Below are positions 656-5,867 of a stretch of 23,166 nt of DNA, piece by piece (positions within the stretch are counted from its first letter, which is position 1; each line of letters opens with the position of its first letter). This DNA comes from a virus. Taxonomy: Duplodnaviria; Heunggongvirae; Uroviricota; Caudoviricetes. The position numbers and the translations under genes were made by a program. Location of the stretch: positions 1 to 23,166 of IMG/VR virus record IMGVR_UViG_3300027908_000001; one strand, 5' to 3'. The notes under the pieces are model-generated. The model was not told the DNA's origin, did not search any database, and worked only from the letters and a program-made list of their open reading frames with translations.

Positions 656-684
656 ACAATACGCCTAGACGGGTCAACGCGCAA
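656..684 (-). promoter_or_regulatory. Sigma70-like promoter
   Basis: TTGCGC-17 nt-TATTGT with GCG immediately before the -10, matching other promoters in the window. Confidence 0.5.
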
Positions 685-705
685 GTGAAAAATGAAACTA
701 TTTTC

Positions 706-744
706 GGAAAAGAATCAGGCCCCGAACTTTCGCCCGGAGCCTGA
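706..744 (-). terminator. Intrinsic terminator ending the candidate ncRNA
   Basis: TCAGGCTCCGGGC-GAAA-GTTCGGGGCCTGA (13 bp, 3 G-U pairs that work only on the minus strand) followed by TTCTTTTCC. Confidence 0.75.
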
Positions 745-1025
745 CCCTCACCAAACCTCATCCCGCTTGCGAGCGCTTACGCAGGACTCAACGTTCGTCG
801 CCATCTCACGCGGGGCAATCCCGGATGTCCAGCCCCACGCTGCATCGTCCTCGGGCCGGTCCCCTACTGTGCTCGCTAGAGCGTCCGATGGGGCGCGGAC
901 GAAACGCGCGGCCTTGCGGCTGAAACCCCATCACCAACCCCGAAGGCTGGCTCCTCGTTCCGAAGAACAAGCAGGACTCGGTACTATGAACGAACTACAC
1001 TACTGAGGGCATGTGCCCTCGAACA
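708..1025 (-). ncRNA. Unassigned structured ncRNA, ~320 nt
   Basis: Own promoter (1032-1060) and terminator. No minus-strand ORF of 60 aa or more. Successive helices with cUUCGg and GNRA tetraloops, a multiway junction, and GAGUCCUGC twice. Confidence 0.65.
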
Positions 1026-1031
1026 GCCTCC

Positions 1032-1060
1032 ACTTTACGGCAACGCGTCCACTTCGTCAA
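1032..1060 (-). promoter_or_regulatory. Sigma70-like promoter overlapping the upstream stop codon
   Basis: TTGACG-17 nt-TAAAGT. The TAA is the stop codon of CDS 1035-1946. Confidence 0.75.
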
Positions 1061-1946
1061 GCACTTCTTTGGGCGGTTGGCAGAAGCCAGAGAAGGCGCG
1101 CGGCAAGACCGGAGCCGATACCGCGCGCTCCTTCTTCGTGACATCGATGCCCGCTTCCCTCAGTCCCGCAGCGTCGCTGTAGTACACCTCCAAGACCGCC
1201 AGCACTTTGCCGCGCTTGAATTCCGTCTCCACAACTTTGCTCTCGCGCGCCTGACCCCAGCCAGTACCAAGGTTAAGCGCCGGTGCCGCGTTGTTGACCG
1301 CCATTACTGGCTCGCTGGCGCACCGCAACATGCCCATGGAGTGAACCGTCTTGCTCTGCATGCCATCGACGCTGCTGTGAGTGGACATCGTGAACGTACC
1401 GGTGTTGTCGCCGCACTTGTAGTACGGGCCATTGAAGTCCCAATATGGAACAGGACGAGGCCGATATGGACGCCATGGACGCCACGGCACTGGCAATGGC
1501 CAATAGTCACCGTGGTAGTGGTCGTGGTGAACTTCCTTGATGACCTCTTTGATTACCACCTTCGGCTCGGGCTTCTCGGCAATGACCATGACGCCTATCA
1601 CGCCTGCGCCCTCTGGTTGACCTTTCGAGGCCGCATACGATTTCGACTTGGCCTTGAAGATAAACTCATTTACTTGGTCGAGAGAAACACGCCAGCCCTC
1701 GAACTCCGTGGCACAAAAACCCTCGACTATGTAGCCGCGGGATTTTTCCGTTGCCTTGTTCCCGTCAATAATCCCGAGTCCATCAATCGCCGGAATGACC
1801 AGCACCTTAGTGGCGCTATTATTTCGGAATTTCAGGGTGAATCGAGACCCTTTTCTACCCTCGATTAACGTGAGGCCGGATTGACCATACTCTTCGGTGG
1901 GGCGACCGTTTACGCAGACTTGCAACTCAAACAGACCTGACTTCAT
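1035..1946 (-). CDS. Hypothetical protein, 303 aa (beta-rich N-domain, His/Pro/Trp-rich linker, LGTGWG C-domain)
   Basis: Long ORF. Start moved to the ATG at 1946 because AAAGGAG lies just upstream (1952-1958). Confidence 0.85.
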   Translation of the reverse strand: MKSGLFELQVCVNGRPTEEYGQSGLTLIEGRKGSRFTLKFRNNSATKVLVIPAIDGLGIIDGNKATEKSRGYIVEGFCATEFEGWRVSLDQVNEFIFKAKSKSYAASKGQPEGAGVIGVMVIAEKPEPKVVIKEVIKEVHHDHYHGDYWPLPVPWRPWRPYRPRPVPYWDFNGPYYKCGDNTGTFTMSTHSSVDGMQSKTVHSMGMLRCASEPVMAVNNAAPALNLGTGWGQARESKVVETEFKRGKVLAVLEVYYSDAAGLREAGIDVTKKERAVSAPVLPRAFSGFCQPPKEVLDEVDALP

Positions 1947-1959
1947 AACTGCTCCTTTG

Positions 1960-2000
1960 CCGCACAATGCGGACTTTTTCATGTCAGAGACACAATGTCT
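1960..2000 (-). promoter_or_regulatory. Two leader hairpins with an identical CA-UUG-UG apex
   Basis: AGACA-TTG-TGTCT (1988-2000) and CCGCA-TTG-TGCGG (1960-1972), directly upstream of the RBS. Confidence 0.45.
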
Positions 2001-2012
2001 AAGACTGTAGGT

Positions 2013-2041
2013 ACTTTACGCCCCACCGATAATTTTGTCAA
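2013..2041 (-). promoter_or_regulatory. Sigma70-like promoter overlapping the HNH stop codon
   Basis: TTGACA-17 nt-TAAAGT. TAA is the stop codon at 2016-2018. Confidence 0.8.
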
Positions 2042-2738
2042 TCGGTTTTTGCTGTCCAGCAATAGCGCCGCAATATTTCACAAAGAGAGGCTCAGGCAGG
2101 TCTCCCTTCATCATGTTTACAATTTTATGTACCCACTGTACGTTGTCCTCGGTATACCCTCCATCTGCATCTATTCGGTCGAGCGACGCCGTCCTCTGTC
2201 CCCTCGCGGTATGCAGCATGATTGGCACGCCTGAAATGGCACAAAGCTTTCCCTGAGAGAGATAGAGATTCCATAGGAAATCACAGGAAAGATTGAACTC
2301 CAGATATCGCAATCTTGCACCCCGACGGAGACTGCTCATGTAGCCTTTGCTTAATGATTCTTTGGATGCGGTGAAAGAGCAATTTGGACAGCTTGTTACA
2401 TCTCCGCTCATCAATACCGCCCGACAGGCTCTTATTTCTTTACCGCATTTGCACCGGCAAACCCAGTGACTTCTTCCCCAATTTTCCGAGGCGCATTCCG
2501 CTCTGCCAATTACTGTCAATAGGCCAAATCTTCTACCAGAGAAAGAAGCCAGAATGACCCCAGTGGCTTCCTTTTTGGTTCTAGTATTTATGCCATGATG
2601 GCGCAAAATCTCCGAGATGTACCTTCTCGGGGTGTGCAATAACTTTGAAATGTAGTCTAGCGTCCGTAGTTCTACGAGATAGAGATGCTTGATTTCTTCA
2701 AGCCTTTGGTCGGCGCGGTCGTATACTGTAGTGGGCAT
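2016..2738 (-). CDS. Free-standing HNH (His-Me finger) homing endonuclease-like protein
   Basis: GRRFGLLTV and WVCRCKCG...SCPNC N-terminal motifs; CAISG...SLDRIDADGGYTEDNVQWVHKIVNMMK nuclease core; AGGAG RBS; visibly more AT-rich than its neighbours. Confidence 0.85.
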   Translation of the reverse strand: MPTTVYDRADQRLEEIKHLYLVELRTLDYISKLLHTPRRYISEILRHHGINTRTKKEATGVILASFSGRRFGLLTVIGRAECASENWGRSHWVCRCKCGKEIRACRAVLMSGDVTSCPNCSFTASKESLSKGYMSSLRRGARLRYLEFNLSCDFLWNLYLSQGKLCAISGVPIMLHTARGQRTASLDRIDADGGYTEDNVQWVHKIVNMMKGDLPEPLFVKYCGAIAGQQKPIDKIIGGA

Positions 2739-2825
2739 AACATAAGTCTCCTGTGACTTGTTTGGGTGTTATGCCTCACTACTGAGGACTTTCAGTGCCA
2801 GCGTCCCAGTTCCGCCAGCACCGAC

Positions 2826-3450: not shown

Positions 3451-3616
3451 AAGGTTTTACATTCGGCGGTTGAAAAAGCGGACACCAGTTGGCGCGATTC
3501 CCCCATATGATTTTTACAACCGCCATTCGACTGAATCCGGCTCGACGATAAAACTGAATCCAGAGGCGCATCAGGCCCGGCTGCCGGTAGGCGTTGATGC
3601 TCCACTGATAATTCAT
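3440..3616 (-). CDS. Small hypothetical protein, 58 aa (MNYQWSINAY...PCEY), absent from the ORF track
   Basis: Hand translation. ATG overlaps the NAMPT-like TGA (ATGA) and the ORF fills the gap exactly. Confidence 0.65.
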   Translation of the reverse strand: MNYQWSINAYRQPGLMRLWIQFYRRAGFSRMAVVKIIWGNRANWCPLFQPPNVKPCEY

Positions 3617-5067
3617 GCCGCCGCCAGCCGCGCCCGGATGTTGGCAAGCGTGTCGTCCACGATGAGGTTGCCGTCATCGAAGACCGTGCGCAGTTCGCCT
3701 TCCCGCTCCTGTTCGGGTGTGCATTTGTCGTACAACACGAACTTGCCGCCTTCCTTCCGAACGCAGAGCAGGCCGGTCGCCGACTTTTTCATGCCGTCAT
3801 CGGTAATCGGGTCTTTGAAGATGTCCATAGCTTGGCCGTTGATTTGCACCCATGTGGCTTTGATGGCCGTTCCGAACGTGTCGCGGGTGTTGAATTGGAA
3901 TGTGAAGCTGCCCACGCCTAGGACAACTTGCGAGGCGAATCCCTTGGCCTTGAGACGTTCGGAGATTTCCTTGGCGCGAGAGAGGTTGATGGAATCGCCA
4001 TAGATGGCACCGACGTGGCTATCCAGAACGCGGTATCCTTTGGCGTTGGTCGTGCCGCCGAATACATCCCAGAGACATTCGACGACGCCTTTGCGGTCGG
4101 CCTCGCTAATGCCGTGCGGGTTGCCGCAGATGATTTGCACTGGGTCCCCACTGTCAGGCCGAATTACGAGCTTGCCATCGCGAGCCATGATTTCCGATTT
4201 CAGGGATGGCAGTATCTTGGTCAATACCGAAAACAAATCCCACGTGTCACTGACCACCGAGAGAATGCCTTTCGGATGAACTTCCGTCAGCAATCGCTTG
4301 AATGTATCGAACTCGCCATCCTTCCGCCCACTGCACATTACGCTGTGCTCGGTTGCGGCCACGCTGCCGCCGACCAACTCCTTCTCGCAATCGGCGTTGT
4401 AGTATTGCTCCAGCCCGTCGATGGCCGGGATGGTATCGGTACCAGTGAAGCTAAGGAGGTGACCCATGCCGGACAATACCGCGCTCTCGAACGAACTCAT
4501 GCCGCGGAAGCTGAAATCATGCGCCTGCCATTGGACGAATTCTGGTGGCATGCCGGTTTCTTCGGCGTAGTGGTTCAGGAGCTTGCGGTACTCATGGGCC
4601 AGCGTTGCCGAGGTGCATGCTTGCCAGATGCTACAGGACATGAGCGTCTCGAAGAAGTTGGTGAGCCAGTAGAATTCATCGAAGGTATTGACGATAGTAA
4701 GGCAGGGCACGCGCATTGGCACAAGACTGCCCTCGGGCAACGCTTTGATGCGAATCGGCAGGTAGCCGAGGTCGTGCAGCGATGCCACATGCTCATAAGT
4801 CGGCAGCGGCCCGATGGAGTTCTTGATGCGCCGCTCATAAGCCTTCATCACTTTGTACTTGGATTGACAGAAGAAATTGCGCTGCATGTCTTCCATTAAA
4901 TAAGCCTTGATGAAATATTGCAGGCCGAAGAACACCATCTCCTCGATGCCTTGCAGCCGTGACTTTCTGGCGGTGTAATTGCTGTAAACCCTTTGGGTGC
5001 CCGGGGGATACTGGAACGGATGAGAAATTTTGTAAAAATCGGTCCTGAGAAATGGCATCATATCCAT
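3613..5067 (-). CDS. nadV: Nicotinamide phosphoribosyltransferase-family protein (NadV/Namat-like)
   Basis: TDFYKISH, HDFSFRG, ATEHSVM, VVSDTWD, VIRPDSGDP, AIYGDSI, GVGSFTFQ and KDPITDDGMKKSATG are NAMPT hallmarks. Confidence 0.95.
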   Translation of the reverse strand: MDMMPFLRTDFYKISHPFQYPPGTQRVYSNYTARKSRLQGIEEMVFFGLQYFIKAYLMEDMQRNFFCQSKYKVMKAYERRIKNSIGPLPTYEHVASLHDLGYLPIRIKALPEGSLVPMRVPCLTIVNTFDEFYWLTNFFETLMSCSIWQACTSATLAHEYRKLLNHYAEETGMPPEFVQWQAHDFSFRGMSSFESAVLSGMGHLLSFTGTDTIPAIDGLEQYYNADCEKELVGGSVAATEHSVMCSGRKDGEFDTFKRLLTEVHPKGILSVVSDTWDLFSVLTKILPSLKSEIMARDGKLVIRPDSGDPVQIICGNPHGISEADRKGVVECLWDVFGGTTNAKGYRVLDSHVGAIYGDSINLSRAKEISERLKAKGFASQVVLGVGSFTFQFNTRDTFGTAIKATWVQINGQAMDIFKDPITDDGMKKSATGLLCVRKEGGKFVLYDKCTPEQEREGELRTVFDDGNLIVDDTLANIRARLAAA

Positions 5068-5867
5068 AGCGGGAATCTTCCTTCGAGGTTGATGGTGGTC
5101 ACGAAACCTTTGGCATCCGGGTGATTGGCGTAGCTGTCGGTCGTGATGATGTGCTGATAGTAGCGTCCGAGGTCATCGAAGCCTCGGGAGAAAATGCCGT
5201 GGCTGACGATGAGCGTCAGATGTTTCGGTTTGATTTGGTCGCCGATGGCCATGAACGTCGCGCCGCCGTCGCAGATGTCGTCGATGACCACGCAGTTGCG
5301 GCCGGTGCAAACATCCGGCTCGACCACCTTCAACTTGACGTGACCATCCGTGTCCCGTTTCTTGAAGCAGTACGTCACTTCCTTGATGCGCGGATTCCAT
5401 TCCAGATACTTGGTCACCTTCTTGACCGCCCCGGCGTCCGGGCATATCAGCACGGCGTTGTCTTTTTCGTAGGCTTGCACCAAGGCGATGTTGGAAACGT
5501 TTTGGGAACGGCTGATGAGTTGTAGCGCCACTTCGCTGTGGACATCGAACAATAACACCTTCTCGAATCCGCAGGAGTTTATGAGGTCGGCCACGACTTT
5601 CAGGTCGATGCTGTCACCCGCCTGCATGACGCGGTCGTAGCGCGCGCCCATGAGATAGGGGATAACGAGTTCTCGCTTGTACGCGAACACGTTGTCCAGC
5701 GCGTTGGAGACCTGCAACAGGTGCATCATCTCCAGACTGGACCGTATCGGGCAGATGACGCGCACGTCGTCGCCGTCGGAGATGCCGGAAATTCGGACGT
5801 GAGGTTGGTTATCGGGAAAGAGGATGAAGCTTACGCCGCGCTGCTTGCCGACATCGATGGTTCTCAT
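5058..5867 (-). CDS. prs: Ribose-phosphate pyrophosphokinase-family protein (Prs/Adps-like)
   Basis: FPDNQPHV, PYLMGARYDR, DVHS, CPDAGA, and PRPP-binding loop VVIDDICDGGATF. Confidence 0.9.
   Translation of the reverse strand: MRTIDVGKQRGVSFILFPDNQPHVRISGISDGDDVRVICPIRSSLEMMHLLQVSNALDNVFAYKRELVIPYLMGARYDRVMQAGDSIDLKVVADLINSCGFEKVLLFDVHSEVALQLISRSQNVSNIALVQAYEKDNAVLICPDAGAVKKVTKYLEWNPRIKEVTYCFKKRDTDGHVKLKVVEPDVCTGRNCVVIDDICDGGATFMAIGDQIKPKHLTLIVSHGIFSRGFDDLGRYYQHIITTDSYANHPDAKGFVTTINLEGRFPLWI

Follow-up and report, generated by a model that had tools for sequence, protein, structure and literature searches.

A complete record of 197,395 nt from an uncultured phage, with a 99-nt terminal overlap, begins with the 23,166 nt analysed here (this whole stretch is hereafter called the window). 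On its minus strand, the window contains a non-coding transcription unit of about 320 nt that is bounded by a predicted promoter and a predicted terminator and belongs to no catalogued family. Some 280 non-coding bases lie between the promoter and a terminator with a stem of 18 bp (749-710), and the unit probably makes a folded RNA outside the catalogued families. A unit with these boundaries had been proposed in a preliminary description; by sequence both boundaries lie where they had been placed, and the codon scores are those of non-coding DNA. The features of the locus are collected in Table 1.

Table 1. Predicted features of the non-coding unit and its immediate surroundings (positions in the window).
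Feature	Position	Strand	Remarks
Upstream 303-aa gene, large unnamed phage family	1035-1946	-	Last residues written by the promoter 1032-1060
Promoter TTGACG-17-TAAAGT	1032-1060	-	-10 box overlaps the upstream stop codon; its class has six members
5' hairpin, 6 bp	1005-1020	-	Probability 1.00
Mostly unpaired A/U-rich linker, 22 nt	983-1004	-	Might serve as a seed or be cleaved; no target was found
Multibranch domain closed by P1, 228 nt	755-982	-	Absent from the syntenic relative L012
cUUCGg hairpin, 7 bp	954-971	-	Competes with the top of P1 through its outer pairs
Second UUCG hairpin, 2 bp + bulge + 5 bp	933-951	-	Only 2 bp before the bulge
Three-way junction arm: 7-bp closing helix, GCAA hairpin, GCGCG helix	887-932	-	Pairs valid; ensemble probability 0.2-0.47
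4-bp hairpin	871-882	-	Probability 0.82
9-bp helix with inner 3-bp hairpin	808-840	-	In the MFE structure; ensemble probability 0.17
Second copy of the 9-mer GAGUCCUGC (first copy 971-979)	781-789	-	Alternative partner for the P1 3' strand
Intrinsic terminator, GAAA loop, U tract	703-749	-	Similar terminator in L012, P about 0.003
Next promoter-like site TTGCGC-17-TATTGT, A/T-rich upstream element	656-684	-	Similar site at the end of L012

When the minus strand is followed over the join of the record, the unit (1025-706) stands at the start of an RNA island. Three non-coding segments (1025-706, approximately 645-425 and approximately 425-155) precede a tRNA-Ser (154-64), which is followed by 32 further tRNAs between genome positions 197,016 and 178,208, the island holding at least 33 in total. 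The downstream RNAs appear to be independent of the unit, because the promoter-like site listed last in Table 1 would be their own. The segment 425-645 is a putative second unit with its own promoter-like site and terminator and a z of -3.2 without the terminator; it contains a 48-codon GTG ORF with a possible ribosome-binding site and a shadow-like codon score. The segment 155-425 shows about seven hairpins before the tRNA-Ser, with z values from -2.7 to -3.8 and no Rfam match. Additionally, long non-coding-looking stretches between tRNAs were observed at genome positions 194,260-195,370 and 196,300-196,690 (L009, minus strand), also without an Rfam match; the former, 1.1 kb long and located after a promoter, is of the size of GOLLD.

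The genome also encodes a tmRNA, away from the unit (167,390-167,808, E 6e-48; L008 7390-7808, minus strand, 123 bits, beside an HNH gene), and, 4.4 kb downstream of the unit, an RNase P-like RNA without a specificity domain (193,430-193,657, corresponding to L009 16035-16262, minus strand, E 1e-14). The setting near a tRNA in a phage, which had been likened to that of GOLLD and ROOL, is thus stronger than described (33+ tRNAs, tmRNA and mini RNase P), although a GOLLD/ROOL-like functional RNA is not supported. The RNase P-like RNA has catalytic-domain motifs and no S-domain; similar short forms were observed in a second tRNA array and in a 225-kb phage (L206/L209 and L252). A full-length RNase P RNA is present in a 348-kb phage record, and the metagenome contig L208 carries at approximately 950-1170 (minus strand) a bacterial-type RNase P RNA nearly devoid of the S-domain, with no N gap, which may be an assembly error. 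Inside the tRNA island (L009 7479-14209, minus strand), ThiF/E1-like and JAB genes lie beside a gene for a widespread 550-aa protein that has no Pfam or PHROG match and 173 homologues; this gene order recurs in L376 and L378. Elsewhere in the window (3613-5867, minus strand), a pair of PRPP-synthetase-like and NAMPT-like genes appears by sequence to be arranged as in the NARP1 pathway for NAD+ reconstitution (10.1101/2024.02.11.579819, PMC13586617). No skew switch indicative of a replication origin was found near the locus.

The promoter of the unit was found at 1060-1032, as already proposed. Among the 15 minus-strand TAAAGT sites of the genome, six have TTG exactly 23 nt upstream, and in all six CG precedes the -10 box; because of this shared spacing and CG, we regard the sites (83,582; 36,386; 16,229; 2,854; 2,041; 1,060) as a real promoter class and the promoter of the unit as no stray consensus match. 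The site at 83,582 lies approximately 1.2 kb upstream of the gene for the terminase large subunit, and the class is also found ahead of the terminase region and of putative head-associated genes. Since the same promoter class precedes head and packaging genes, the unit would be expressed late, and its regulation is probably separate from that of the tRNAs. The tRNA island itself is driven by a second, larger promoter class with an A-rich upstream element and a common spacer motif (TCGATTCG or CGCGATTCGCG). About 16 promoters of this class, distinct from the six TAAAGT promoters, were identified genome-wide (for example at 195,394, 178,133, 106,112 and 154,448), and their spacer motif is probably an operator.

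The proposed terminator was likewise recovered: its stem (749/710) comprises 18 bp, six of them G-U, with a pair probability of 0.97 and a z of -8 when taken alone. The automated terminator scan did not list 749-710, probably because an extension of the stem absorbs the U tract. Folding of the 331-nt stretch gave a z of -3.37 for the minus strand versus -1.39 for the plus strand, and G-U pairs close helices solely on the minus strand, which agrees with the strand assignment made earlier. The description of the RNA as highly structured was overstated, since the entire excess in z comes from the terminator; the remaining body (750-1025) has a z of -0.30, no better than shuffles, and its number of local hairpins is within chance (P = 0.13 in shuffles). 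The weak z of the body is uninformative on function, because the tmRNA of the same phage scores only -0.45; the mini RNase P scores -1.59.

In the predicted fold, the hairpins at 1005-1020 and 871-882 pair as previously described. An element that the preliminary description had overlooked is the helix P1 (982-968 with 769-755), which closes the multibranch domain. Its core, 977-968/769-760, has 10 bp and a probability of 0.96, and is extended by tandem G-A pairs and by 982-980/757-755. This symmetric tandem G-A is the only one of the unit. A kink-turn-like element suggested at 851-866 could not be upheld, as its order is AG...GA where the consensus needs GA, and a 3-nt bulge is lacking. Two cUUCGg hairpins had been reported; the one at 971/954 is perfect over 7 bp, but the other (934-950) is interrupted by its bulge. 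The former, at 964, is the sole perfect cUUCGg hairpin with a stem of at least 4 bp on the minus strand of the entire 197 kb (the plus strand has seven; shuffles contain 0.005 on average), and UUCG and GNRA hairpins taken together are in excess (P = 0.007, a post hoc statistic). The inner helices of the domain form a diffuse ensemble, with probabilities of 0.2-0.5. The junction closed by 926-932 with 887-893 pairs over the 7 bp proposed (932/887), at the low probability given in Table 1. The 9 bp of the helix 808-840 also pair, but the kissing interaction between its CCGG loop and ACCGG is unsupported, because CCGG occurs three times in the unit (859, 824 and 737). Similarly, both copies of GAGUCCUGC are present, but such a repeat is within chance (P = 0.15 in shuffles). 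The alternative register of P1 that uses the second copy is 7.8 kcal/mol less stable than the best fold, and the two folds are mutually exclusive.

Contrary to the statement that the unit has no ORF, short ORFs exist on both strands (54 aa at 970-806 on the minus strand and 104 aa at 692-1006 on the plus strand), although both score as non-coding: their codon scores of -0.33 and -0.18, respectively, resemble those of shadow ORFs (mean -0.26), whereas real genes score from 0.00 to +0.16. A small-protein reading was rejected on these scores. Possible antisense targets in the phage were at chance level, the best 18-nt duplex falling in an unrelated coding region.

A search with the Rfam covariance models at three scales and E up to 10 gave no match of note for the unit, in agreement with the earlier view that it lacks RNase P, tmRNA, SRP and group I/II cores and falls in no recognised family. 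The models for tmRNA, SRP, 6S RNA and riboswitches did not match. Neither the CR-I/CR-V P4 core nor the CR-II/CR-III T-loops with P7-P11, which characterise RNase P or its S-domain, were found in the unit. For group I/II introns, there was no Rfam match, no GACU partner for the AGUCC strand on inspection and no interrupted gene. RNAs associated with reverse transcriptases (retron, DRT, DGR) were addressed through the RVT_1 domain, which has no match in the genome, and through the neighbouring genes, which are not reverse transcriptases. An omega RNA would resemble the 3' end of a tnpB element, but the unit matches neither tnpB locus; its GGA motifs (8 observed versus 7.8 expected) do not point to a CsrB/RsmZ-type sponge.

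GOLLD and ROOL are ornate phage RNAs of tRNA islands (PMC12286853). The unit resembles GOLLD (RF02032) and ROOL in that it is non-coding, multibranched and located in a phage tRNA island, the function being known for neither; moreover, GOLLD rises during lysis, and the putative late promoter of the unit would give the same timing. It differs from them in length (about 320 nt versus 600-800 nt or more), in matching no model and in having no conserved family. GOLLD, ROOL and OLE are approximately 600 nt long or more, whereas the terminator and the new promoter-like site part the unit from the next segment, and the covariance models of these three families gave no match to it. Homo-oligomers formed through kissing loops, which would mark GOLLD, ROOL and OLE, are unsupported for the unit, in which the palindromic CCGG is present three times. 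We conclude that the unit belongs neither to GOLLD/ROOL nor to the DapZ/MicL type discussed below. A further comparison is with the species 1 and 2 RNAs of T4, stable non-tRNA RNAs of a phage tRNA cluster without known function; they are smaller and are cut from a tRNA precursor, whereas the unit has its own promoter and terminator.

Identical copies of the unit were recovered in two further assemblies, the identity extending over 2,100 nt; these are the sole copies found, and no divergent homologue of the body was detected. A single-sequence model, which is a weak tool, found no homologue of the body in 51 other phage records. In the phages reached via the upstream gene or via the 550-aa protein of the island, most of them distant, there was no match to the body by BLAST, nhmmer or a single-sequence model, and BLASTN against INPHARED phages and plasmids yielded chance matches only. 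Pattern scans of IMG/VR with the repeat pair and with the two P1 strands returned 51 and 21 chance matches, respectively. Six-frame seeded scans of JGI and GTDB, with the plus-strand ORF as a proxy, gave a weak negative: none of the candidates listed, about 600 at most, was confirmed. The genome itself contains no paralogue of the unit. The nearest phages, found through their capsid proteins in ENA/JGI, are 72-85% identical in that protein.

The only divergent relative with the same gene end is L012, a contig of 1,560 nt; its gene shares 59% identity with the 303-aa gene upstream of the unit. L012 keeps the -35 box and the 17-nt spacer within the last codons, with TAATCT as the -10 box, and the C-terminal extension encoded by the promoter was found in only two proteins (those of the phage and of L012) among about 170 family members. 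Also retained in L012 are a terminator and a following promoter of similar form (P about 0.003), together with the promoter that precedes the gene (P 0.002-0.004). In L012, promoter and terminator enclose only approximately 51 nt, which contain one hairpin and do not resemble the body of the unit (P about 0.4). The 228-nt domain is therefore either dispensable there or recently gained here, the absence of the body among close relatives resting on this one contig. As L012 keeps the promoter-terminator slot without the body, the slot appears to be older than its contents. The HNH endonuclease gene on the other side of the upstream gene (2016-2738, minus strand), which is flanked by two promoter-plus-leader copies, is also missing from L012, so the spot takes insertions. 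The mRNA of the upstream gene probably shares the terminator of the unit.

The leader just mentioned is a conserved motif ahead of the 303-aa gene family, composed of a hairpin, AAAAGUC, a covarying hairpin of 4-7 bp and CA, followed by the ribosome-binding site. It was identified, sometimes in tandem, in 27 of 42 loci (L010-L012, L211-L247) against a background of 7%. In an alignment chosen from clear cases, 91% of the cells of its hairpin are paired and 12 double changes were counted (0/500 shuffles). The leader model has two hits in the window (1948-1984 and 2761-2799, minus strand), both in its training set, and Rfam has no match to the motif in the window. The motif is probably a translational operator.

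Taking these data together, we tentatively favour, at slightly less than even confidence, the interpretation that the unit is a lineage-specific, late, stand-alone structural RNA acting in trans. The host RNA polymerase would transcribe it late, together with the head and packaging genes, and the RNA would fold into the 5' hairpin, the unpaired linker, the P1-closed multibranch domain and the hairpin of the terminator. Its UUCG caps and the helices at its ends may protect it from decay. Its action would then depend on its shape: most likely it would bind a protein of the host or of the phage, as a scaffold or decoy, late in infection, whereas coding, attenuation and antisense pairing with phage genes are not envisaged. 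The promoter class, the terminator, the non-coding scores, the G-U pairs and better fold of the minus strand, the rare cUUCGg hairpin, the P1 probability of 0.96 and the position in the island argue for a structural RNA, whereas the shuffle-like z of the body, the diffuse inner ensemble, the absence of homologues and the L012 slot without the body argue against it. A bolder version, which we consider unlikely, is that the domain is the first of a new class of late phage structural RNAs that self-assembles or enters the head with cargo proteins expressed from the same promoter class, for example as a ribozyme or a packaging/cargo RNA.

The main rival is an expanded 3' UTR or spacer, in which promoter and terminator are conserved, the 228-nt body is a recent functionless gain and the helices are those that 62% G+C gives. 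We consider this doubtful but a serious competitor. The z of -0.3 without the terminator, the missing body in L012, the tendency of the spot to take insertions and the chance-level repeat, hairpin and GGA counts are all consistent with it, but it would leave a dedicated promoter for a non-coding unit, the rare cUUCGg hairpin, the clean long-range closing helix and the island context without an explanation.

The unit could also be a 3'-end sRNA of the MicL/DapZ type, transcribed from a promoter within the upstream ORF; such an RNA would possibly be trimmed and would pair with host mRNAs. DapZ is transcribed from a promoter immediately before the stop codon of dapB, and the precursor of MicL is about 300 nt long (PMC9438474). 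The likeness includes the promoter at the end of the upstream ORF, the shared terminator and, for MicL, a primary transcript of approximately 300 nt; the U-tailed terminator and the unpaired 22-nt linker would suit such an RNA, and the slot of L012 would yield an sRNA of 100 nt. However, the unit is far more self-paired than DapZ or MicL and sits in a phage island, no conserved seed/target was found, the unit and L012 share no seed (P about 0.4), and no target was found in the phage. We give this interpretation a rather low probability.

A relic of a mobile element or intron, with 181 nt inserted into a prior 38-nt hairpin under a 9-nt target duplication, appears improbable. Deletion of 970-790 and one repeat does leave a self-consistent hairpin, the ends show a weak 7-of-8 inverted match, and a free-standing HNH gene lies 1 kb away, but the repeat is within chance, the genome has a single copy, and neither a group I/II core nor a reverse transcriptase was found. 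It is very improbable that the unit is a decoy carrying two copies of the operator hairpin from the leader of the upstream gene family: a loose, post hoc leader pattern occurs at 788 (P = 0.009), but the leader covariance model, run without filters and with E up to 10, has no hit in 700-1030, and both the invariant AAGU and the following CA are altered. We give equally little credence to a cis-acting attenuator or riboswitch that gates read-through into the tRNA island by switching between the 9-mer copies, for which the two mutually exclusive folds would be available, as the terminator has a probability of 0.97 with no competing antiterminator, the downstream RNAs have a promoter-like site of their own and no riboswitch model matched. 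Least credible of all is an S-domain acting in trans to complement the S-domain-less RNase P encoded 4.4 kb downstream, which is already largely refuted: 774-744 has a short resemblance to P12 and J12/13 of the type A S-domain (RF00010; gammaproteobacterial type, about three quarters identical over 36 columns), but the RNA receives no score from a profile built on 45 real S-domains, the best pairwise P is about 0.08, both T-loop motifs are degenerate and Rfam gives no local match.

As a single sequence without covariation, the unit is so far a candidate rather than a family; the mini RNase P (three tRNA-rich or large-phage loci) and the covarying leader motif are better supported than the unit itself. 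Phage tRNA islands have given large RNAs with unexpected RNA-only architectures. If real, the unit would be a compact RNA that can readily be transcribed in vitro and that shares its regulation with the head genes rather than with the adjoining tRNAs.
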